The notes beneath the pieces were generated by a model. It did no database searches, was not told the origin of the DNA, and was given only the letters and a program-made list of their open reading frames with translations. This document shows, piece after piece, positions 2,655 through 59,293 of a stretch of DNA of 64,000 nucleotides. The position numbers were made by a program, and so were the translations under genes. Every line of letters begins with the position of its first letter. Position 1 is the first letter of the stretch. This DNA is from Cyanobacteria bacterium SOY_34_metabat_3 (GTDB lineage Bacteria; Cyanobacteriota; Cyanobacteriia; Cyanobacteriales; Microcoleaceae): positions 15,378 through 79,377 of the forward strand of contig JANNOR010000280.1 of assembly GCA_031399265.1 (NCBI GenBank), read 5' to 3'.

Positions 2655-2688
2655 AATTAGAAATAAATCTAGAGGACAGATAGGGTAG

Positions 2689-3936
2689 ATGAAGGTTGTA
2701 GTTCTCAATAATTCTGATAGTGAAGGCGGTGCAGCCAGGGCAGCTTACAGGCTGCACCAAGGTTTGCAGGGGATTGGCGTGTCTTCGCAAATGCTGGTGA
2801 AAAATAAGAAAAGCGGCGATCCGAATGTCATATTGTCACAGAATGGCATTGCGAATAAGTTTGATAAGATTATTTCAACTATATCTAACTCGCCATTGCG
2901 GCTTTACCCTAAGAGAAATCCTGTGATATTTTCTCCCCAATGGTTGCCAGATTCCCTAGCTGCGAAAGTTGCCAAAATCCAACCAGATATTATTAATTTG
3001 CACTGGGTTTGCGGGGGTTATATGCAAGTAGAAACCATTCCCAAGTTTAATAAACCCCTAGTCTGGACGCTTCACGATATGTGGTCTTTCACGGGTGGAT
3101 GCCACTACAGCGAAGAGTGCGATCGCTACACTAAATCTTGCGGTAGCTGTCCGCAACTTCACAGCAGCAAAGAGTCCGATCTGTCGCGGTGGGTGTGGGA
3201 GCGGAAAGCGAAAGCTTGGAAAAATATTGACTTAACTGTGGTTAGCCCTAGTGCTTGGTTGGCTAAATGCGCTAGTTCTAGTTCTTTGTTGAAAGATTGT
3301 CGAGTTGAGGTAATTCCTTACGGCATTGATATTAAAACGTACAAACCCATAAATCGTGAATGGGCGCGAGAAATCCTGAATTTACCTAAAGATAAACAAA
3401 TTGTACTCTTTGGAATTGCAGGGGGGACTAGCAACCGCTGGAAAGGATTTAACCTGCTAGTATCGGCTTTGCAAAGCCTGAGCAAGTCGGGCTGGAAAGA
3501 TCGGATAGAGCTGCTGGTTTTTGGTTCTTCTCAACCGGAAAATGCCGTTGAACTGGGTTTTAAAGCTTACTATTTGGGTAATCTAGCAGATGATATCTCC
3601 CTAGCAACAGTTTATGCAGCAGCAGATGTGTTCGTCGCTCCTTCTGTTTACGATAATTTGCCAAACACGGTGATGGAAGCTGGAGCCTGCGGCATTCCTA
3701 GCGTCGCATTCAATATCGGGGGAATGCCGGATCTGATCGAACACTGCTCAAATGGCTACTTAGCGAAACCTTATGAAACAGAAGATTTAGCTACAGGTAT
3801 TGCATGGGTACTGGAAAATCGCGATCGACACCAACAACTCTGCGCTAGGGCGCGTCAGAAAGTGGAACAAGAATTCACTTCAGACATACAAGCTAGGCGC
3901 TATTTGTCTCTTTTTTCCGAACTTGAGGGCGCTTAA
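2689..3936 (+). CDS. GT4 family glycosyltransferase
   Basis: GGAARAAYRLH, WTLHDMWSFTGGCH, DNLPNTVMEA. Confidence 0.9.
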   Translation: MKVVVLNNSDSEGGAARAAYRLHQGLQGIGVSSQMLVKNKKSGDPNVILSQNGIANKFDKIISTISNSPLRLYPKRNPVIFSPQWLPDSLAAKVAKIQPDIINLHWVCGGYMQVETIPKFNKPLVWTLHDMWSFTGGCHYSEECDRYTKSCGSCPQLHSSKESDLSRWVWERKAKAWKNIDLTVVSPSAWLAKCASSSSLLKDCRVEVIPYGIDIKTYKPINREWAREILNLPKDKQIVLFGIAGGTSNRWKGFNLLVSALQSLSKSGWKDRIELLVFGSSQPENAVELGFKAYYLGNLADDISLATVYAAADVFVAPSVYDNLPNTVMEAGACGIPSVAFNIGGMPDLIEHCSNGYLAKPYETEDLATGIAWVLENRDRHQQLCARARQKVEQEFTSDIQARRYLSLFSELEGA

Positions 3937-3950
3937 AACAGCACCGCCCA

Positions 3951-4709
3951 TTAAACCAACTGTTTGCGCTGCTCTGGCGCAGCAAAAAAATTAGACTTTC
4001 TAAATTGTCCGTTTTCTTTAACAAACACCATGTCTACTTGAGCTAAAGCTCCGTCGAGGGGACGGATGTAACCCCCAAAAATATCGTAGGTGGCAAATCC
4101 GCGCTCTTTCATATAACTGACAACATCGTATAATTGCGGGCCCCCGACAAAGAATTGAAACAGGGATACTTCCAGTATGACTACTTCTGTATCCTCAAGC
4201 ACCTTGCGACAGCCGTCTAAAACATTAAGCTCGGCGCCCTGCACGTCAACCTTCAATAAATAAGGCGCTTTTAAGTTTCTTTCCCGGCACAAATCATCAA
4301 CGACAACCAGAGGAATTTCCCTGGGAACACCGTCGGCAACACTACCTTCTGACTCGTTGAGAGTAGAAGATCCGTAAAGTTGAGGGTGAACATTAATCGT
4401 AATATTTCCCGCTTGAGAGCCGGCGCCAGCCATGATATACTGAGCGTTGTATTTTTGACAAATTTCTTTTAAATTTTTCTCGTATTCGATCAAAGGCTCT
4501 ACCAGCAAAAAGTTGGTTTGGGGGAATTTTTCGTACAATTCAAAAGTCCCGTAGGCAACGCCGACATCTATAACGGTTTCTGGTTGAAAACCCAACTTGA
4601 TGAACTGATCGAGTACGCCGTACATAGATGTTCTCATGCCTCGACGCGGGAGATCGAATCCCAAAGGCTTAAGTATTTTGTACGCTATCTTTTTGAGTAT
4701 TTGCCTCAT
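3951..4709 (-). CDS. FkbM family methyltransferase
   Basis: VIDVGVAYG SAM motif, LLKVDVQGAEL; opposite strand to the rest of the cluster. Confidence 0.88.
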   Translation of the reverse strand: MRQILKKIAYKILKPLGFDLPRRGMRTSMYGVLDQFIKLGFQPETVIDVGVAYGTFELYEKFPQTNFLLVEPLIEYEKNLKEICQKYNAQYIMAGAGSQAGNITINVHPQLYGSSTLNESEGSVADGVPREIPLVVVDDLCRERNLKAPYLLKVDVQGAELNVLDGCRKVLEDTEVVILEVSLFQFFVGGPQLYDVVSYMKERGFATYDIFGGYIRPLDGALAQVDMVFVKENGQFRKSNFFAAPEQRKQLV

Positions 4710-4753
4710 TTTTTTTTCCAGACTACAATATTGAATGAAACTATTATAGATTG

Positions 4754-4980
4754 GTCAGGAACTCAGGGCTTAAGCCACTGAGCTTGTAAGAAATTACAAG
4801 CTGTTCTGACCAGACCCCTTTCACGAGGAGACGTTATTTAGGTCACGACACCGGCGAATGCGACGCTAGTTTTGGGCTCTGTCATCTGCAATTAAACAGT
4901 TTTAAAGTCACTGAAACAGTGTTGCAGGTCTAACAAGCCTTTATAACCAGGTCGAAGCGAACATTACCCCGAAAGGGAGA
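4754..4980 (+). ncRNA. IscB-type omegaRNA scaffold (HEARO-like)
   Basis: Nested helices: 4833-4842 with 4938-4947, 4886-4891 with 4922-4927, terminal CCC-GAAA-GGG hairpin; 3' boundary approximate. Confidence 0.72.
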
Positions 4981-5122
4981 GCGAGGCAACCATACCTCTT
5001 TCATGAGGGGCAACCATACCCCTCCAACCCCGCAAGGGGATTTAAGGTGGTTGAAACCGCCCGCGTCGTTTCCCACGATCGGGCTAAAGCCACGCTCGTT
5101 TCCCACTTACCGATTGATTTTG
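4754..5122 (+). mobile_element. Non-autonomous IS200/IS605 element carrying an IscB-type omegaRNA (HEARO-like), no iscB ORF
   Basis: Closing stem GGTCAGGAAC 4753-4762 / GTTCTGACC 4803-4811; GCTTGTAA-GAAA-TTACAAGC hairpin; HEARO-like blocks GACCAG, ACGTTATTTAGGTCACGACACC, CTCTGTC, ATTAAACAG, CGAAGCGAACATTACC; GGCTAAAGCC end hairpin; ATGAA immediately 3'. Confidence 0.75.
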
Positions 5123-6004
5123 ATGAAACCACACAGCACTATAGCAACAATCGTAACTTGCCATAACCGCAAGCAAAAGACCTTAGCTAGTCTCGCGGCG
5201 CTATTCAATCAGGTGCTGCCGGCAGATGTCTTGCTGGTGGCGTACTTAGTGGACGATGCCAGCACTGACGGTACTGCCGAAGCTGTGCAGGAGACTTATC
5301 CGCAAGTTAAGTTGCTGCGCGGAGATGGGAATTTGTTTTGGAATGGGGGAATGCGACAAGGATTTGCTGAAGCCATGAAGCAAAATTATGACTGCTACGT
5401 CTGGCTCAACGATGATACTGTACTGGAACCGTTCGCCTTGAGCACAATGCTAGCAACGTCCCGCTGCTTGGCCGAGCAAGGCGAGACGCGAGCTATTGCA
5501 GTGGGTTCTACTCGTGACTCGGAAACTGGGGCGCTGACTTATGGAGGCTGGTTGCGGACTAGCTGGTGGCATCCTTTGCATTTTCGCTTGGTGACACCGA
5601 TCGCAGAAGCTCAGCAGTGCAGTACGATGAACGGTAACTGCGTTTTGATGCCGCGAGCAGTAGTTGAAGTAGTGGGAAACCTAGACCCCGCATTCATCCA
5701 CAGCATGGGAGATATTGACTACGGTTTGCGAGCGGTGCAACAAAATTGTACAGTTTGGGTGGTTCCTGGATACGTGGGCACCTGCTCGACCAACCCGCCG
5801 GAGGGTAACTGCTGGGAAGACCCGAACATGAGTTTGCTCGATCGATTTAAAAAGGTACTGCAACCGAAGGGTTTTGGGCCAAAAGAGTCGAAAGTGCTCG
5901 TACAGCGGCACACAAATATCTTGTGGCCGATATATTGGCTGTTACCTTATTTGAGGTTGATTTTGATCTCGGTTCGCCGAGGATCTGTAGGCTATCGCGG
6001 CTGA
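5123..6004 (+). CDS. GT2 family glycosyltransferase
   Basis: TCHNRK, VDDASTDGT, GNLFWNGGM, WLNDD motifs; start placed at ATG 5123 because the 5003 extension lies in the omegaRNA element. Confidence 0.88.
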   Translation: MKPHSTIATIVTCHNRKQKTLASLAALFNQVLPADVLLVAYLVDDASTDGTAEAVQETYPQVKLLRGDGNLFWNGGMRQGFAEAMKQNYDCYVWLNDDTVLEPFALSTMLATSRCLAEQGETRAIAVGSTRDSETGALTYGGWLRTSWWHPLHFRLVTPIAEAQQCSTMNGNCVLMPRAVVEVVGNLDPAFIHSMGDIDYGLRAVQQNCTVWVVPGYVGTCSTNPPEGNCWEDPNMSLLDRFKKVLQPKGFGPKESKVLVQRHTNILWPIYWLLPYLRLILISVRRGSVGYRG

Positions 6005-6092
6005 TAGTATTTTTGCAAGCACAGGGAATGGGGAAGATTTTTTGGCGATACCGCTGGCTTTCTTGTCGTCGCTACAACTAAAGGTGAACCGA

Positions 6093-7244
6093 ATGGATGA
6101 ACTCCGCATCGCTTGGCTTGTCCCGGAAGTGGGCCTGGGAGCTTACTGGCAGCCTGTTTTGAGAGAATTTACGAAAGTGTTTAAAAATACTGTGTTCTAC
6201 ACCGGCGGTGTCTGGCCGGGATTCGACCCAAAAATGCCTGGTTCGTCGGCCATTCAGCTAGTAGGGAAGACGAGTTTTGTCGAAACGACAAAGATAAATA
6301 CAGGCTATGATCGCGGATTCATTGTAGTATCGCCTAGGATTATCGGTTATCTACTCAAATTTCGTCCTCAAGTCGTATTTCCCCAAGCTTTCTCTTTGTG
6401 GACTGTAATTGTGGCTTTGTTAAAACCACTGATGGGATGGAAAATTGCGATTATTTATGATGGCAGTTCCCCGAATACAGACTTTAGAGATTCCAGTTTT
6501 CGGACATTTGTACGCCGCATACTTGTGCGGTTTGCCGATGCTTTTGTTTCTAACAGCAATGCTGGCAAACAATATCTGATGGAAGCGCTTAACGTACCCG
6601 AAAAAAAAATTTTTACTAGAACCTATCTTGTCCCGGATGCGGGAGCTTTAATGAAGCAATTGGATCAAACTAAGCCGCCAAAATTGCAGTTAAAACGTCC
6701 TATTTTTCTGTATGTAGGGCGCATCACGGCTAGAAAGGGAATTAAGACACTTTTAGAAGCTTGCGCTATTCTTAAAAATCAAGGTTATGCTGATTATTCG
6801 CTGTTGATTGTTGGCAAGGGAGATCAGCGGGAGGAACTGGAAGCTTTTATTAAAGAGCGCAATTTTGAAGAGCAGGTAACTTGGGCCGGATGGGTGGAAT
6901 ATGGAAGTTTGGGTGCTTACTTTCAGCAAGCTGATGTTTTTGTATTCCCTACTTTTGAGGATGTCTGGGGAATGGTGGTACCGGAGGCGATGGTTTTTGG
7001 CAAACCTGTACTCTGCTCAAATGGTGCAGCTTCCTGCGAATTGATTGCTGAAGGTGAGAATGGTTATATTTTCGATCCTAAAGACTCTCAAGGCTTGGCC
7101 TCGGCGATGCGGCGTTTTTTGGACAATCCAGATTTGATTGAGTCGATGGGAGAGCGATCGCGCGAATTAATTGCTCAAACAACTCCCGAAACAGCCGCCC
7201 AAGCTTATGTCGAAGTAACATCATTTTTAATGGTTAGTGGTTAA
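6093..7244 (+). CDS. GT4 family glycosyltransferase
   Basis: FLYVGRI, FPTFEDVWGMVVPEAM; likely start ATG 6093. Confidence 0.9.
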   Translation: MDELRIAWLVPEVGLGAYWQPVLREFTKVFKNTVFYTGGVWPGFDPKMPGSSAIQLVGKTSFVETTKINTGYDRGFIVVSPRIIGYLLKFRPQVVFPQAFSLWTVIVALLKPLMGWKIAIIYDGSSPNTDFRDSSFRTFVRRILVRFADAFVSNSNAGKQYLMEALNVPEKKIFTRTYLVPDAGALMKQLDQTKPPKLQLKRPIFLYVGRITARKGIKTLLEACAILKNQGYADYSLLIVGKGDQREELEAFIKERNFEEQVTWAGWVEYGSLGAYFQQADVFVFPTFEDVWGMVVPEAMVFGKPVLCSNGAASCELIAEGENGYIFDPKDSQGLASAMRRFLDNPDLIESMGERSRELIAQTTPETAAQAYVEVTSFLMVSG

Positions 7245-7325
7245 GCTGTTGTAGATAGTAGAAAAAAAACAGCGTTTTTAAGTAACCAACCAAAACTAAC
7301 CACTGACCACAAATTAAAAACTCAA

Positions 7326-7446
7326 GGTGCATCTCTATTTTGCACAAGGGCGAAGCATTTCGGCAGACAATTTATTAGTTATAACCAGAGGTTTACTGCC
7401 GAAATGCTTCGCCCCTACGAATATATTTGCAAAAATGAGATGCACC
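7326..7446. repeat. ~120-bp MITE/REP doublet with terminal IR GGTGCATCTC...GAGATGCACC
   Basis: Internal IR GGGCGAAGCATTTCGGCAG / CTGCCGAAATGCTTCGCCC; inverted second copy at 36155-36273. Confidence 0.8.
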
Positions 7447-53807: not shown

Positions 53808-54347
53808 TTATCTTCTCACATTAGTCTGCACTTGGTCAAGCAATCTTCTAACTTTGATGTCGAGGGAGTAGCCGCGCCTGGTGCCGATGACGATCGTCCC
53901 GCCGAGTCGATCGTGAAAAGCTTGCGGAAAGCGGGAGGTGTCCGTGAAGGCAACGCTACAGTCGATCGCCAGGGGCAACACGAGCAGCACAACGCCCGCA
54001 TTGGTGGATGTGAGTCCCCCCAGGGCTAGGAAGGCTAAGGCAGCGCAAATGCCCAGCAATGCCTCGCGTTTGGACAGTTCTTGCAGGCCGGGAGTGCGAT
54101 CTAGTCTGGGATCGACAATTTTCATATCCAAAGCCCAGCGCCCAAGGCTTTGACCTTTATTTTTCCTGACGATGGCTACGCGCATAATCAGCCAGAGTAG
54201 GAAGAAAAAGATGGTTTGGGCGATCGGATTTGTACCCAGAAGCAAACTGGGCAGCCAAACGGCAAAGCCATCGATGCAGAAAGCAGCGGCGCGACGCCCG
54301 ATCGATACTTTGGGAAGGAGAGGAACTAAATCGGAACTCATGGGCAA
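53808..54347 (-). CDS. RDD family membrane protein
   Basis: RRAAAFCID, GQSLGRWALDMKIV, HDRLGGT. Confidence 0.85.
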   Translation of the reverse strand: MPMSSDLVPLLPKVSIGRRAAAFCIDGFAVWLPSLLLGTNPIAQTIFFFLLWLIMRVAIVRKNKGQSLGRWALDMKIVDPRLDRTPGLQELSKREALLGICAALAFLALGGLTSTNAGVVLLVLPLAIDCSVAFTDTSRFPQAFHDRLGGTIVIGTRRGYSLDIKVRRLLDQVQTNVRR

Positions 54348-54417
54348 AAAAGAATTACTTTAAAGTGCGTAAGTCCTGTTTCTATCATACCTGAAACTTC
54401 AGAAGTTATTTCACAAT

Positions 54418-54699
54418 TTAATAAACCTCATCATGGCTTCCAATATCAACCAAGACAATTAAATCATCACCTGTTGTAGCATCTTTTTTGAAAGCAAAAA
54501 TGATTCGACAATCATAAGCCACTGAACAAGACCATAAACCGTCCAATTTCCCCGTCAACTTATGAGATTTCAAAGCTGGATTAAAAGGATCATCGCCCAA
54601 CAATCTTACAACCTCTAATATCTGGTCTTGTAATTGGTGATTTTTTTTGATTAATCGCTTAAAACGTTTTTTGAAACACGGATCGGTTGTTAAAATCAT
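54418..54699 (-). CDS. RelE/YafQ-type type II toxin (complete copy)
   Basis: LKSHKLTGKLDGLWSCSV, DIGSHDEVY. Confidence 0.88.
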   Translation of the reverse strand: MILTTDPCFKKRFKRLIKKNHQLQDQILEVVRLLGDDPFNPALKSHKLTGKLDGLWSCSVAYDCRIIFAFKKDATTGDDLIVLVDIGSHDEVY

Positions 54700-54772
54700 T
54701 CTTCCTCATCCTCCAATAAATATGACTTCAAATTCTCACAAGCTACTCTCATGGCTGTTCTCGGCTATACAG
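54588..54772. repeat. 185-bp direct repeat, copy 1 (antitoxin 3' end plus toxin 5' end)
   Basis: Collinear, substitution-diverged copy of 56373-56557. Confidence 0.88.
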
Positions 54773-54879
54773 AATTAAAAAAAATGTATGTACAGAATCG
54801 CCAAGGCGCTTTACTCATCACCCAGTTCGCGCAGTAGAAGGGAGCAATTACCAAAGCGCCTTAATAGCCTTGGCGGTTG

Positions 54880-55062
54880 CTATAACTTGATAAGTCCTCT
54901 AGCAATTTGCTCAACAAGTTCCGAGCGAGAAATGCGGTATCTTTTAGAAAAAGCATCCAGTTTTTTGATAGCCGTTTTGGTAAGGCTAAAGGCGCAGCTT
55001 TGTTTGATCTCGTCGTACATCTCTGGCTGATTTCTCATGCTTTTATGTTTGGGTTTAGCCAT
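54880..55062 (-). CDS. Ribbon-helix-helix (CopG-like) protein
   Basis: AFSLTKTAIKKLD..ISRSELVEQIARG; AGGAG RBS 8 nt before ATG 55062. Confidence 0.75.
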   Translation of the reverse strand: MAKPKHKSMRNQPEMYDEIKQSCAFSLTKTAIKKLDAFSKRYRISRSELVEQIARGLIKL

Positions 55063-55123
55063 GTCAAAAACTCCTTTCTGATTCAGAAAACAAAATTTCA
55101 GCTTGATCCGACGTGAAAATGAC

Positions 55124-55152
55124 AAAAAAAAAGGAGTTCTTGATAGGACTCC
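55124..55152 (-). terminator. Intrinsic terminator upstream of the RHH gene
   Basis: GGAGTCCTATCAAGAACTCC followed by T9 on the minus strand. Confidence 0.75.
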
Positions 55153-55320
55153 CTGGCGAAGGTTGCATTATTCAATTTTTGGTTGTGAAGCGCTGGAAGA
55201 ACCAAACGCTTTCCCGACAAGATAGTCGAGTTTTTTGAGAAGGTTATGATTGCTAAGTTTGAATATTAGCACTTGCTTTGCGAAGCAGGGAGTGCCGGAA
55301 TTCCTAAGCTTTGGGCTTAT
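55124..55320 (-). ncRNA. Candidate structured sRNA or attenuating leader (~197 nt)
   Basis: Sigma70-like promoter upstream, several consecutive hairpins, and terminator GGAGT..ACTCC-T9. Confidence 0.55.
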
Positions 55321-55327
55321 AAAACTC

Positions 55328-55356
55328 ATCATAACACAAACAATCAAAATCGGCAA
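55328..55356 (-). promoter_or_regulatory. Sigma70-type promoter
   Basis: TTGCCG, 17-bp spacer, TATGAT. Confidence 0.7.
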
Positions 55357-55622
55357 GATTTTTGTAATTTATTCTTTAAGTCTTTGCTAGATTGCTTTTA
55401 GCTCTTAATAAGAGCATGGTAGTGGTTGAGGACTTAACTTTTAAAGCGGTTCCTCCTGTTATTACGGCATACTCAATGAATCCTCAATATTCAAGAAATT
55501 GGTTTGTTAATTGTTGCTGCTATACCTCATGAAAGCAGGAACCGCTGTATTTGCGATACGCTTTCCACCCTGTGCATATTAGGTCAAGTTTCTCGATTCA
55601 GCATCAAGGTTAAAAATACCAT

Positions 55623-56318
55623 TTAATCGTCATTCAGTATCATGTCAAATCTTTTTTTAAGCGTTTCAACTACCTCCTCTTCACTCCTACGATGTTTTAG
55701 GATCTCACTGAGTTCTGTTCTAGTATATTCTAACAAATCTTTTATCGAGTGTATTCCTGCTCTTTTTAGAGGATTATAGGCACGAACTGACAACTGTAAT
55801 TCTTCAATAGGAAATAAAGATAGAGGATCGGCATCTTCATTTTCAGTCTCTTCACTTTCTATATTTTGATTATAAGGATCGGTATCTTCATTTTCAGTGT
55901 CTTTACTTTCTATATTTTCCTTGTTTAGTATATTTGCCAATTGATCCAAACACAACTCGGATGACTTTTTTTCCAATAAATAAACATTGCTAGTATAAAG
56001 TTCCATTGTACCTTGAGAGTTTTTTCCAGGAAAACGTCGTTCCGTAACGCTAATAAATCTCCAACCCAGATTTCCTAATTCATTTAATAATTCAATTCTA
56101 TCTATGTTATACTTCTCATCTTCGTAGGCCCCTGTAATTACAAAATGAGGAGTAAAGTTAGACAAACCGTAGAAATTTGTTATTGGTAATGTCTTATAGT
56201 AAAATTCAATATATTGATATTTGGCTTTAATCGCTACTTCTTCGACCAAAGATCGTAGTTCAGATATGAATTCTTTGTCTGTCACAAAAATATTTATTTC
56301 ATCTGAATTGTCATTCAT
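55623..56318 (-). CDS. Fusion of a DUF4177-like N-terminal domain, acidic linker and RNA polymerase alpha-CTD-like domain
   Basis: C-terminal PIEELQLSVRAYNPLKRAGIHSIKDLL..SEEEVVETLKKRF; N-terminal LNELGNLGWRFISV. Confidence 0.8.
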   Translation of the reverse strand: MNDNSDEINIFVTDKEFISELRSLVEEVAIKAKYQYIEFYYKTLPITNFYGLSNFTPHFVITGAYEDEKYNIDRIELLNELGNLGWRFISVTERRFPGKNSQGTMELYTSNVYLLEKKSSELCLDQLANILNKENIESKDTENEDTDPYNQNIESEETENEDADPLSLFPIEELQLSVRAYNPLKRAGIHSIKDLLEYTRTELSEILKHRRSEEEVVETLKKRFDMILNDD

Positions 56319-56352
56319 AATAATACCCTCAACCGTTCAAAATTTTAATATC

Positions 56353-56484
56353 CTAGAGATTATTATAGCAGCGATCATCACCCAACAATTCTAAAACCTC
56401 TAATATCTGGTCTTGTAATTGCTGATTTTTTTTAATTAATCGCTTAAGACTTCTTTTGAAACTCGGATCGGTTGTTAAAATCAT
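56353..56484 (-). pseudogene. Truncated RelE/YafQ-type toxin (43 codons)
   Basis: MILTTDPSFKRSLKRLIKKNQQLQDQILEVLELLGDD then diverges and stops. Confidence 0.8.
56362..56370 (-). promoter_or_regulatory. Extended -10 promoter for the alpha-CTD fusion gene
   Basis: TGCTATAAT immediately inside the cassette junction, about 45 bp before the ATG. Confidence 0.55.
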
Positions 56485-56557
56485 TCCTCCTCATCCTCTA
56501 ATAGATATGACTTCAACTCTTCAAAAGTTCCTCTCATGGCTGTTCCCGTCTCTACAG
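56373..56557. repeat. 185-bp direct repeat, copy 2
   Basis: See copy 1 at 54588-54772. Confidence 0.88.
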
Positions 56558-56699
56558 CCCTAAAGACTTCCTGAGTATTAGCTAAAATTTCAGCCCGCCG
56601 ATTTTCAATCCGTCGCTTGCGGATAAACTCAAAAAACTGATCCTGATCTTCTACTGATAAACTTTCGACCTGATCGATAATTTCTTGTAAAGTCATCAT
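56481..56699 (-). CDS. Putative antitoxin (complete copy)
   Basis: 72-aa ORF with acidic tail; ATGA overlap with the toxin start. Confidence 0.75.
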   Translation of the reverse strand: MMTLQEIIDQVESLSVEDQDQFFEFIRKRRIENRRAEILANTQEVFRAVETGTAMRGTFEELKSYLLEDEEE

Positions 56700-56876
56700 A
56701 CAGCCTCCTTTAAAGTAAAATCAACTAAAGACTTTGCCTCCGCCAAAACCCGATCCTTAATCAAACGACTTAATCCTTGTTCCGTCACAATATCTGCCTT
56801 ACCACCTAGTATATCTTGCAAATCCATCAATAGCCCCCCTGGGAACCAATGCGAAATTTTCTGTAAATCATAGTTT
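56696..56876 (-). pseudogene. 3' remnant of a minimal nucleotidyltransferase (MNT) gene
   Basis: Manual translation YDLQKISHWFPGGLLMDLQDILGGKADIVTEQGLSRLIKDRVLAEAKSL; in-frame stop just upstream. Confidence 0.65.
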
Positions 56877-56965
56877 CTGTCGCGTTAACAGGCAAAGCTA
56901 TGACAGAAATAAATGAGATGATAGGAAGTATAAGCAAGCTTATTTTCATGATTTTAATCATTTCA

Positions 56966-57595
56966 TCACCTTTTTGGCAAAGTGTCACTACAACCAGCTT
57001 CTTTAAATTGTTGAAGCAACCGATTTCTATCTGCTTGGGGAATGTAACTCATTAATTTAGCTGGATCGACTAGCGGTTTAGGCCAAGCATATTCGTAGAT
57101 ACCAGGTTGATTGTTGCTAGTGTTAATAAAAGTCACCCCTAAATAGTTACCTTGTTGAACCAAAATCGTGCGTTCGCTTGTTCTGATTTGTTTACCAGAG
57201 ATAGTTCCTTGAGCAAAACTTATCCCGATGTCATTGGCTGTGGGAATAAAAGTTTCTAAAATACATACCCGACCTTTGATAGTTGAGGGATAAATATCTA
57301 GATTTTCTTCTAGTGCCGTCCATTTACCGAGAAAAGGTGCTACATCAGGATTAACTGGCAACCAAGCTCTAACAAACGCTTTCAAGTTCTGAATTTCATT
57401 TTGATTACGGCGATCTCGAAGATACAAATCACGATTTCCCGGCTGTGGAGAAGCAACAAAACTGCGAAACCGATTCATTAATTGCTGCAATTCATTCTCA
57501 GTTGGATATCGTTTAGATTGTTGTGCAATAATTGGTAAACAGCAACCCAAAATTATCATATTGACTATCAAGGCTACTAGCCCGCGTTTTCTCAT
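56966..57595 (-). CDS. Secreted hypothetical protein
   Basis: Signal peptide MRKRGLVALIVNMIILGCCLPIIA. Confidence 0.7.
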   Translation of the reverse strand: MRKRGLVALIVNMIILGCCLPIIAQQSKRYPTENELQQLMNRFRSFVASPQPGNRDLYLRDRRNQNEIQNLKAFVRAWLPVNPDVAPFLGKWTALEENLDIYPSTIKGRVCILETFIPTANDIGISFAQGTISGKQIRTSERTILVQQGNYLGVTFINTSNNQPGIYEYAWPKPLVDPAKLMSYIPQADRNRLLQQFKEAGCSDTLPKR

Positions 57596-57637
57596 AAGTA
57601 ATACTTTCCAGTTCTGTCAACCCTTAGTTTACCAGCC

Positions 57638-58381
57638 TTGCTCATAAAATTTATGTATAAACCACCACTCTCACAAGCCCAACTCGATCGCGCACCAATC
57701 ACTTCCGATCGCACTGTGCTAAATAAAGCATATGCGATCGCCAAAAAAGCAGGGCGTCACAATTTGGCAAAACTAATGACCTGTATGGTTATCTTACTGC
57801 CTACAAACCTCGCTTTTTCTGCTCCTACTTACTTAGGCAGCAAACCTACTTACTTAGGTAGCGAACCTAGTGCTGAGGCTGACAGCGCTAAATTCACTCA
57901 AAAGGTTAACATCATGTTGGCTCAAGAAAGCACCCAGTTACCGCTGAGCATTCGGTATGGTGGGACAGAAGCTAGGGGAGGTTTTGTCCTTATGCAACTT
58001 ACTGCACCCAATCGAGATACAACTCAACCGGCTTACGGTGGCAGGCTTCGTCTCTACGATGTTCATCTTGCCAAAATGTTTGAAACTTCCCATTTTTTGT
58101 GCCAGCAATTTACAAGCGTTTCCGGTTATGAATGGGTTTATTCAGCAGGTAATGGAAGTATTCGCATGGGGAACTTTAGAATTCCCTGTAGTTTAGCTAA
58201 AGAAATGGCTTCAACCTACGGCTTAGGTAAGCCAGAACGCACAAGCATTGCCAAAGATACCGAGGGAGGCCCTACTGAATCAGATGTCTATTCTATTCCG
58301 ATTTTTGACATCACCGGTTCTAAGGTTCAGCGATGGATGAATTTTGTCCAAAATTTTAAACCAACGATCAGAGGTCTGTAA
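57638..58381 (+). CDS. Hypothetical protein, probably secreted; start uncertain
   Basis: Signal-like segment near 57777-57822; 21-nt tandem duplication encoding PTYLGSKPTYLGSE. Confidence 0.6.
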   Translation: MLIKFMYKPPLSQAQLDRAPITSDRTVLNKAYAIAKKAGRHNLAKLMTCMVILLPTNLAFSAPTYLGSKPTYLGSEPSAEADSAKFTQKVNIMLAQESTQLPLSIRYGGTEARGGFVLMQLTAPNRDTTQPAYGGRLRLYDVHLAKMFETSHFLCQQFTSVSGYEWVYSAGNGSIRMGNFRIPCSLAKEMASTYGLGKPERTSIAKDTEGGPTESDVYSIPIFDITGSKVQRWMNFVQNFKPTIRGL

Positions 58382-58438
58382 TGATCTACAATACTAAATA
58401 CTCTGCAATAAGCCGTTCTTCGTTCTTCTTTCTTCCTA

Positions 58439-59293
58439 ATGTCTCCAAATGTGCGATCGCCACGCCCCAAACCTCTATTAAAGCAAATAGTCATCAGAAT
58501 TGCCCTAGCCGTAATTGCTGCTATTATTGCCTTCAACATTCCTCACTCCTTATTTCCCGTGTCTACAGAACCCGTATCCGAAGCCAGCCCACCGCCCGAA
58601 ATCCAAAACGTGCTCGCCGGTAAGCGCAAGATTGTGACAGTGGGCGACAGCATCACCGAAGCCGGGAAGTACCCCGGAGGTTACGTTTGGCTGCTGCAAC
58701 GCTATCTAAATGCGCTTTATCCCGATCGCCAAATCGAAATCGTCAACGCCGGAATTTCCGGCAACAAGGCGAGTGATATGCAAGCGCGGTTTCAAAAAGA
58801 TGCGATCGACCAAAAGCCAGATTTAGTCATGATTAACGTCGGAGTAAACGACGTTTGGCACGCTTTCTTCGACTTCCAAAACAGTCAATTTCATCCGCAA
58901 GGCAACTTGCAGACGGGAGTACCATTGGTAGAATATCGAGATAAATTAACTCAAATGGTGCTATCTGCAAAAGCCGCAGGAATTCGAGTTTTGCTGCTTT
59001 CTCCTACTCCAATCCGCGAGATTCTCGACGGCCCAGAAAATCGCCGATTGCAAGAATACGTTGCCGCAATGAGAGAAATTGCCTTGCAAAATAAGTGCCT
59101 ATTTATTGATTTGAACGCGCCTTTTCGCGAAGTTATCGGCACCTATCAAAGACACGCAGGTAAAACTCTGAACTTGTTAGCCGCAGATGGAGTTCACCCA
59201 AATCCGTCGGGATATCGAATTATTGCCTTTACTATCTTGCGCGGTTTGGGAGTACCCGCCAAGGATATTGAGAATTTGCAAGTCAAAAATTGA
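58439..59293 (+). CDS. SGNH/GDSL hydrolase
   Basis: VGDSIT, NAGISG, GVND, DGVHP. Confidence 0.9.
   Translation: MSPNVRSPRPKPLLKQIVIRIALAVIAAIIAFNIPHSLFPVSTEPVSEASPPPEIQNVLAGKRKIVTVGDSITEAGKYPGGYVWLLQRYLNALYPDRQIEIVNAGISGNKASDMQARFQKDAIDQKPDLVMINVGVNDVWHAFFDFQNSQFHPQGNLQTGVPLVEYRDKLTQMVLSAKAAGIRVLLLSPTPIREILDGPENRRLQEYVAAMREIALQNKCLFIDLNAPFREVIGTYQRHAGKTLNLLAADGVHPNPSGYRIIAFTILRGLGVPAKDIENLQVKN

Follow-up and report, generated by a model that had tools for sequence, protein, structure and literature searches.

Probable remains of two tandem YafQ/RelE-type toxin–antitoxin modules around a patchwork insert in the lipase/RDD hot spot of a Microcoleus-type cyanobacterium

Within a 64,000-nucleotide (nt) stretch of the genome of Cyanobacteria bacterium SOY_34_metabat_3 (Microcoleaceae; contig JANNOR010000280.1, positions 15,378 to 79,377, forward strand), referred to here as the window, an intact antitoxin gene and an intact YafQ/RelE-type toxin gene lie 1.8 kb apart, each adjoining the damaged copy of a partner gene. 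This locus is probably the worn remains of two tandem paralogous YafQ/RelE-type type II toxin–antitoxin (TA) modules around a patchwork insert, in a lipase/RDD hot spot of Microcoleus-type genomes. Relatives were surveyed in 79 species genomes of the genus, which includes “Microcoleus sp. CAN_BIN18”. In what follows, G and L numbers are genome and locus labels, W is the window copy of the locus, and right and left copies are marked _R and left.

Layout of the separated modules

All genes of interest are on the minus strand. Read 5′ to 3′, the order starts with a nucleotidyltransferase remnant, antitoxin A and a toxin stub. It continues with a 54-nt leader, a gene for a 231-amino-acid (aa) protein (56318–55623, the cargo), ~560 nt of non-coding DNA and a ribbon–helix–helix (RHH) gene (55062–54880), and it ends with a spacer of ~100 nt, an antitoxin remnant (54779–54700), a toxin (54699–54418), 70 nt and an RDD-family gene. 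The parts of the two modules, TA-B and TA-B′, are:

56481–56699, minus strand: intact antitoxin A of module TA-B, an open reading frame (ORF) of 72 aa whose stop overlaps the toxin start
56353–56484, minus strand: truncated upstream toxin T1′ (pseudogene), 43 aa, made of 37 toxin codons and 6 unrelated codons (RCYNNL) before a stop
54700–54779, minus strand: antitoxin remnant A′ of module TA-B′, the last 26 codons, with an in-frame TAG
54418–54699, minus strand: intact toxin T2, 93 aa, of the YafQ/RelE family (Pfam and NCBIfam)
56373–56564: right repeat copy, antitoxin 3′ end and toxin codons 1–37, of the resident TA-B type
54588–54779: left repeat copy, antitoxin 3′ remnant and toxin 5′ part
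56371–56376: deletion junction at GCGATC, where toxin sequence ending in GGTGATGATC is joined to GCTGC

A repeat search returned a single direct-repeat family (n = 1), whose two copies (54588–54779 and 56373–56564) are collinear, 192 nt each and 87% identical; blastn of the window against the whole genome gives the repeat as 185 nt at 88.1% identity. A preliminary description of this stretch had already reported collinear, diverged copies, which pairwise alignment bears out (87–88% identity) with the repeat 7 nt longer than first given (192 vs 185 nt). It had also correctly read the right side as a complete antitoxin and a toxin cut after 37 matching codons, the left side as an antitoxin 3′ end with a complete toxin, and the distance between the two intact genes. 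The right copy is 96% identical over 183 nt to the intact operon of G001. No further copy of the repeat, of the TA genes or of the cargo was found by blastn in the 6.3-Mb assembly.

Antitoxin A is the only complete antitoxin of its family in the genome. It has no match in Pfam or NCBIfam. Its counterparts in G001, G044, G057 and G087, whose operons are uninterrupted and have antitoxin stop and toxin start overlapping as ATGA, are 89–93% identical to it. T2 scores above the curated thresholds of both PF15738 YafQ_toxin (43 bits, cut-off 30) and TIGR02385 RelE/StbE (35, cut-off 27.9), and its closest solved structures are those of Helicobacter pylori HP0892 and HP0894 (PDB 4nrn, 2otr, 1z8m). The immediate upstream partner of T2 is the 26-codon remnant with its TAG, so the toxin is not overlapped by an intact antitoxin. 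The remnant supplies the GGAGG ribosome-binding site of T2 and contains an 18-codon frame that starts with ATG, MRVACENLKSYLLEDEEE.

The right junction falls exactly at a GCGATC hexamer (56371), as the preliminary description had it, and a motif scan finds this hexamer nowhere else in the TA/cargo stretch. The interior is AT-rich (29–40% GC) and belongs to a low-GC islet (54350–58400) that spans the interval between the RDD gene and an SGNH/GDSL lipase gene. The reported absence of the octamer of highly iterated palindrome 1 (HIP1) also holds, with none between 54348 and 57733 in the motif scan; it is not significant, since only ~2 are expected from the density in the window.

Origin of the left copy and decay of the upstream toxin

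Comparison of 17 aligned copies (left, right and from intact operons) separates the histories of the two repeats. At the beginning of the antitoxin remnant (~55 nt), the seven left copies have ~10 fixed changes in common that occur in no right or intact copy. In 110 nt of the toxin pseudogene on the right, not one fixed change is specific to the right copies. Both remnants were free to drift, so this imbalance excludes divergence in place from an exact duplication. On the evidence of the alignment, the left copy descends from a diverged paralogue, the putative module TA-B′. An intact TA-B′ operon was not found among the 79 genus genomes, GTDB species genome contigs and JGI metagenome contigs; a left-type pattern of 32–35 nt (with at most 3 mismatches, in the genus) retrieved only interrupted layouts.

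The metagenome contig L059 (Ga0209591_10032088) preserves what appears to be an earlier state of the right side. Its order is lipase, nucleotidyltransferase, antitoxin, full-length upstream toxin, ~22 nt of normal downstream sequence, a HIP1 site and a spacer, followed by the cargo, the RHH gene, the antitoxin remnant and the toxin. Since the upstream toxin of L059, which precedes the cargo, is full-length, the break after codon 37 in the window is a later, secondary deletion; by the same layout, the duplicated segment was once ~385 nt long and extended from the antitoxin 3′ end through the entire toxin to 22 nt past it. The L059 toxin has a 1-nt deletion in a T run. A full HIP1 site, TGTGCGATCGCTGC, stands ~22 nt past its stop, and sequence at the junction can be compared directly: GGTGATGATC|GCTGC in the window vs TGTGCGATC|GCTGC after the toxin of L059. 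The window deletion thus likely ran between two GATC sequences, the distal one within the HIP1 site.

Other relatives point to separate losses of the same gene. N047 joins toxin codon 16 to a point inside the spacer of L059, and its deletion is independent because the junction lies within that spacer. The remnant toxin lacks a start codon in G060, is frameshifted in G052 and is cut further in N047. In G060 (L028:1674-1898, G060:C59) the antitoxin stop has changed from TGA to TCA, a change that adds two residues to the antitoxin and at once removes the start codon (ATG) of the toxin stub. The upstream toxin has therefore been disabled independently at least twice, and possibly three times. The preliminary description had envisaged cargo captured by recombination between paralogous TA modules; the paralogy is supported by the ~10 changes fixed in the left copies, and a single split or capture event is contradicted by L059 and N047.

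The left toxins carry B′ marks in a graded fashion. Marks at codons 8–12 are present in five of seven left toxins, the mark at codon 21 in four and those at codons 31–32 in two (W and G024), and no marks occur past codon 32 in W, G024, N047 or L059. T2 of the window is a mosaic, with B′-type changes up to codon 32 and the resident B type after it; relative to G001, the left copy is 88.5% identical inside the repeat and 95.9% after it (Fisher p = 0.01). The toxins of G060 and L060 are ~8% diverged along their whole length and look like working B′ toxins rather than wrecks because Y62K and R65L match HP0892 residues. Such a gradient is expected if end points varied, whether in gene conversion or in allelic recombination with its anchor in the RDD flank. 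The switch at codons 33–37 was at first favoured as the mark of a one-step insertion and then rejected on the strength of L059, N047 and the conversion gradient; since the B′ marks form a gradient of end points, the switch coincides with the truncation point only by chance. A single reciprocal crossover would also have left complementary B′ marks in the right copies of N047 and L059, where none are present.

Selection on the separated toxin can be gauged from its substitutions. The ratio of non-synonymous to synonymous change (pN/pS) is 0.25–1.0 between separated toxins and the toxins of intact operons (0.4–1.0 for T2 of the window), vs 0.13–0.21 among intact operons, and all five full-length T2 genes are open. 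These values indicate that constraint on the separated toxin is relaxed or shifted and that the gene is not dead. The changes in T2 codons 1–32 are all non-synonymous (S8C, R11K, S12R, L13F, Q21H, L31V, E32R).

The hot spot in relatives and the contents of the insert

Across the survey, the interval between the SGNH-lipase and RDD genes is a TA hot spot with many states. A single uninterrupted TA-B operon adjoins the RDD gene in G044, G057 and G087 (empty site). G001 has two complete tandem operons (TA-A toxin 62% identical, TA-B toxin 89% identical), TA-A occurs alone in G088 and G014 and with an orphan B antitoxin in G058, and only an orphan antitoxin is left in G012. The interrupted layout recurs in at least seven relatives, namely G060 (96% identical to the window over 2.5 kb), G024, G052, JAUBVR010000012 (L047 = N047) and the metagenome contigs L059, L060 and L061. 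Identity between W and G024 is itself a mosaic, with 98% in antitoxin A and 99% in both the RHH stretch and the T2 3′ part, vs 84% in RDD and 71% in the cargo N-domain. The preliminary description had looked to synteny in relatives, where two complete independent TA operons would have spoken against it. The RDD border is conserved, a one-event split does not fit a locus of so many states, and the tandem of G001 answers to two complete operons in part, as a different pair (TA-A and TA-B).

The G001 operons (L026:5081-5910, G001:C57) are bracketed by a 262-nt direct repeat of 84% identity that comprises a nucleotidyltransferase remnant and the antitoxin 5′ half. Their antitoxins are nearly identical in the first ~45 residues and differ in the C-terminal halves, and their toxins are only 62% identical, which points to modular exchange within antitoxin genes. 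G052 has a HepT (DUF86) gene in place of the remnant and toxin. There (L029, G052:C78:136531-140529, minus strand), a complete MntA-type nucleotidyltransferase (107 aa) stands at the far left of the array and the HepT/DUF86 toxin (126 aa, Pfam 8e-21) at the far right; the pair is thus ~1.9 kb apart, with the antitoxin, the toxin stub, the cargo and the RHH gene between. In the other genomes only the 3′ end of the nucleotidyltransferase remains, fused in front of the antitoxin.

The insert and the borders of the hot spot comprise the following features:

55623–56372, minus strand: cargo unit, a 54-nt leader with a Shine-Dalgarno sequence, then the 231-aa protein
55441–55622: interspersed repeats resembling miniature inverted-repeat transposable elements (MITEs), one of ~110 nt (55441–55550) with 21-nt inverted arms (55442–55462, 55529–55549)
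54880–55443, minus strand: RHH gene, 60 aa from the ATG at 55062, with ~380 nt upstream (Pfam RHH_3, 21.8 bits vs 21.6)
54790–54885: palindromic MITE-like element of ~95 nt, TATAGCAACCGCCAAGG...CCTTGGCG... (TATAGCAACCGCCAAGG...CCTTGGCGAYTGCTATA), directly after the RHH stop codon
56696–56830, minus strand: 3′ remnant (44 codons) of an MntA-type nucleotidyltransferase, whose stop overlaps the antitoxin start
53808–54347, minus strand: RDD-family membrane protein gene (Pfam RDD 2.6e-14), conserved right border of the hot spot
58439–59293, plus strand: SGNH/GDSL lipase gene (Pfam Lipase_GDSL on the orthologue), conserved left border of the hot spot

The cargo unit proper (56348–55623) encodes an orphan N-domain, an acidic repeat linker and an RNA polymerase alpha C-terminal domain (alpha-CTD; Pfam RNA_pol_A_CTD 1.2e-14). 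Its AlphaFold model matches alpha-CTD structures (e.g., 9dvt_A, TM 0.84, 57% identity) in the alpha-CTD part alone; a fold search gave no confident match for the N-domain, which is represented by only 5 clusters among 1.84 billion representatives. The fusion gene (55623–56318; G024 L025:5307-5804; G052 L029) diverges much faster than its neighbours. DNA identity in the N-domain is 71–77% where the adjacent RHH and TA parts reach 88–99%, the acidic linker is a variable tandem repeat, G024 has no alpha-CTD, and family members P0010 and P0011 have one or two alpha-CTD-like helix-hairpin-helix modules. The cargo unit is upstream of TA in G088 and occurs alone, with no TA, in the same hot spot of L048–L051. 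In L048 (ENA ERZ27334325 k141_30687, 2669-7417) the lipase/RDD hot spot, devoid of any TA, holds orf209, a DUF4087 gene, an alpha-CTD gene, a 50-aa ORF, a weak KilA-N-like 128-aa ORF, an Anthrone_oxy gene, a partial second lipase copy and a DUF7219 gene.

The remainder of the insert is of diverse origin. The repeats at 55441–55622 have dozens of matches of 80–110 nt at 80–90% identity, scattered over the genomes of the genus. The RHH stretch, with a promoter-like site upstream of the gene (55356–55328), shares 72–75% DNA identity with a module in G007, G085, G074 and G081 (L065:1173-3158, L064, L067 and L068) that stands before a 121-aa ORF and a protein of 661 aa ending in a Phage_integrase (tyrosine-recombinase) domain. 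The RHH module of the window is probably a leftover of an integrative element. No TA fragments were found beside the integrase-bearing relatives, which may themselves constitute a candidate undescribed integrative element. The palindromic element at 54790–54885 is a predicted hairpin that, like the ~110-nt element, occurs many times across the genus, with copies at unrelated places in G088, G048, G008 and G005; it makes up the RHH–toxin spacer, whose fold is no better than that of shuffled sequences (z = −0.53). The interval 54300–57000 has no terminator-like site, and therefore none between the RHH gene and the toxin, and no Rfam family. Searches of all insert proteins against defence-system and phage libraries matched only the RelE-like toxin and, weakly, the RHH regulator. 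ORF, repeat and profile searches found no transposase, integrase or terminal inverted repeats within the insert or at its ends.

The RDD-family gene is syntenic in all relatives, and the hot spot is flanked by RDD, L33, S18 and RNase II at one end and by the lipase, DUF4436 and RPE65 at the other. Nucleotidyltransferase sequence precedes the antitoxin in all relatives, and the remnant in the window aligns with residues 63–107 of the full protein of G052 (Pfam NTP_transf_2, 7e-10). Two further islet genes, 56966–57595 (minus strand, 209 aa) and 57638–58381 (plus strand, 247 aa), are both conserved. Their proteins have no match in Pfam, NCBIfam, PADLOC or PHROGs, and the 247-aa protein has two paralogues elsewhere in the genome (42–49% identity).

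Proposed history, alternatives and significance

The history that we favour would begin with a tandem in which TA-B lay upstream and TA-B′ downstream, adjoining the RDD gene, with the insert coming to lie between them. An ancestor like L059 would have followed, in which antitoxin A and a full-length T1 precede the cargo, the RHH gene, a 5′-truncated A′ and T2, the arrangement that L059 displays. T1 would then have been inactivated independently in each lineage, in the window by a deletion from codon 37 to the GATC at the HIP1 site downstream of the toxin (as the junction suggests) and in N047 by a different deletion; the 1-nt deletion may have done the same in L059. The gradient in the seven left copies shows that T2 was drawn part of the way to the B type, through gene conversion or allelic recombination whose end points varied. 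At present, antitoxin A, from its own promoter 1.8 kb upstream, would neutralise T2 in trans, and the cargo gene would be co-transcribed with the antitoxin. T2 may be transcribed from the RHH promoter or by read-through, and would rely on the ribosome-binding site that the A′ remnant retains. If the 192-nt repeats recombined with each other by a RecA-type process, the insert would be lost and an ordinary operon would remain; the preliminary description had foreseen this, and the operons of G044, G057 and G087 look exactly like its product.

Several observations weigh against this history of two tandem modules. The full A′ that it places at the locus is conjectural, since no intact TA-B′ operon was found, and this is the main gap. 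The link between the junction and HIP1 comes down to only ~9 shared bases (GATC and GCTGC). L059 is a single metagenome contig, and the 1-nt deletion in its T run could be an assembly error. In RelE/YafQ complexes the N-terminal part of the toxin usually contacts the antitoxin, and this is the part of T2 that carries the seven non-synonymous B′-type changes, which bears on the predicted neutralisation of T2 by antitoxin A. The raised pN/pS of T2 could also signal loss of function.

A Campbell-type integration, in which a small circle with the cargo and a related TA fragment recombined once with a single operon and could excise and re-integrate through the repeats, would produce the observed geometry of insertion-duplication, with one copy cut at its 3′ end and the other at its 5′ end. 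Empty sites in relatives, the foreign type of the left copy and the similar 262-nt repeat that brackets another TA unit in G001 agree with it. We nevertheless regard it as unlikely. Comparison with L059 and N047 shows that the upstream toxin lost its 3′ end in a later step, and did so at least twice, the two copies do not form a pair of reciprocal mosaics (N047_R and L059_R carry no B′ marks downstream of the switch point of the left copies), the genome has no second cargo or repeat copy, and no donor was found. A weaker form, with a circle of ~385 nt homology that would give the L059 state, is kept alive by the missing intact B′ operon. An old target-site duplication by a transposable or site-specific element inserted in the toxin gene, with copies that diverged in place, is very improbable. 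In its favour, low-GC DNA is flanked by direct, collinear repeats, and relatives of the RHH module adjoin a tyrosine recombinase in other genomes, but a length of 192 nt (at 87% identity) far exceeds any target duplication known to us. Fixed changes (0 in 110 nt of the right toxin remnant vs ~10 in 55 nt of the left antitoxin remnant) are also too unequal to be compatible with neutral divergence over an equal time, which already refutes such a duplication; the insertion point is not fixed, as L059 shows, and there is no transposase, integrase or terminal inverted repeat in the insert or at its ends. This explanation was rejected on repeat length, absence of a transposase and unequal divergence, the last of which also bears out the earlier statement that the repeat is no fresh target duplication.

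Persistence of the layout in at least eight genomes or contigs of several species, the open reading frame of T2 in five of five full-length copies and the greater similarity between species of TA parts than of flanks could instead reflect selection for a bracket, in which the antitoxin and the toxin, by standing apart, guard the intervening DNA (the alpha-CTD and RHH genes) against loss. We consider this improbable. The simplest loss, across the repeats, keeps both genes and is therefore not counter-selected, which leaves stabilisation of the cargo a weak idea; G052 swapped T2 for HepT and G024 lost the alpha-CTD, so neither toxin nor cargo is held constant; and the cargo also occurs in the hot spot with no TA (L048). 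A sedentary integron, or a cluster of attC sites lacking an integrase (CALIN), with cassettes shuffled by IntI at attC sites, would explain why the genes are small and point the same way, why TA modules are present and why the content varies while the borders are conserved, but we give it next to no credence: a crude regex scan (RYYYAAC...GTTRRRY) found no attC-like pair in 54300–58500, the borders are housekeeping genes with no integrase, and cassette borders share no motif, with junctions inside genes.

The decay of two tandem modules could be extended to a more general scheme, which we offer tentatively and think rather unlikely. The hot spot would stack units by a homology-driven route that needs no recombinase, each unit bringing its own diverged copy of the end of a neighbouring gene (192–385 nt here, 262 nt in G001). 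The B-type antitoxin and the mosaic B′/B toxin would then be a selected, trans-acting split pair, with the toxin 5′ end tuned by gene conversion to the sole antitoxin left, and the 18-codon frame might be a micro-antitoxin.

Orphan toxins, orphan antitoxins and trans-acting antitoxins are on record in chromosomal type II TA loci (E. coli survey, PMC10790755). The stretch resembles decaying loci of that kind in that each module has had one partner removed or cut short, the antitoxin that survives presumably acts in trans, and the locus varies between close relatives. It differs in that the orphans are complementary halves of two paralogous modules at one locus, 1.8 kb apart, and in that the layout is common to several species in which the same upstream toxin was repeatedly and independently inactivated. 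The VapD/VapX split TA of Neisseria gonorrhoeae, as summarised in the same survey (PMC10790755), was studied experimentally and has its toxin on pConj and its antitoxin on another element. By that account it shares with the present locus a toxin and a neutralising antitoxin that are encoded apart, although neutralisation is only predicted here, and it differs in that its genes are on different replicons rather than in one chromosomal islet. T2 aligns at full length with HP0892 and HP0894 (E ~1e-5), including the C-terminal GSH motif, but the similarity is weak, the antitoxin has no recognisable family and the activity of T2 is a prediction.

Insertion-duplication by a cloned internal fragment likewise leaves direct repeats, one copy without its 3′ end and the other without its 5′ end, and recombination between them restores the operon; here, by contrast, the truncations differ in age, the copies do not mirror each other as reciprocal mosaics, and neither a circular form nor a second copy is known. 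Phage 21 in icd is an integrative element that inserts inside a gene and brings a replacement gene end. The present insert is similar in that it brings a diverged beginning for the gene downstream, which thereby stays intact while the old start persists as a repeat, but it contains no recombinase and its insertion point is not fixed, as in L059 it follows the whole toxin gene. TA modules in variable cassette regions are well known, and the stretch adds one more case in which TA modules decay and recombine into mosaics at a genomic hot spot; it does not amount to a new kind of system.

The relatives provide a natural series in the decay of stacked TA modules, from intact operon through tandem, one-and-a-half operons and complementary halves to toxin replacement. 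Where two toxins shared one antitoxin, the same toxin copy was lost at least two times and the survivor was partly converted to the type of the surviving antitoxin. The locus is thereby a small, testable case of how TA specificity and dosage shape the evolution of genome islands in naturally recombining cyanobacteria. It also holds a caution for annotators, as ‘orphan’ toxins may have their partner a few genes away.

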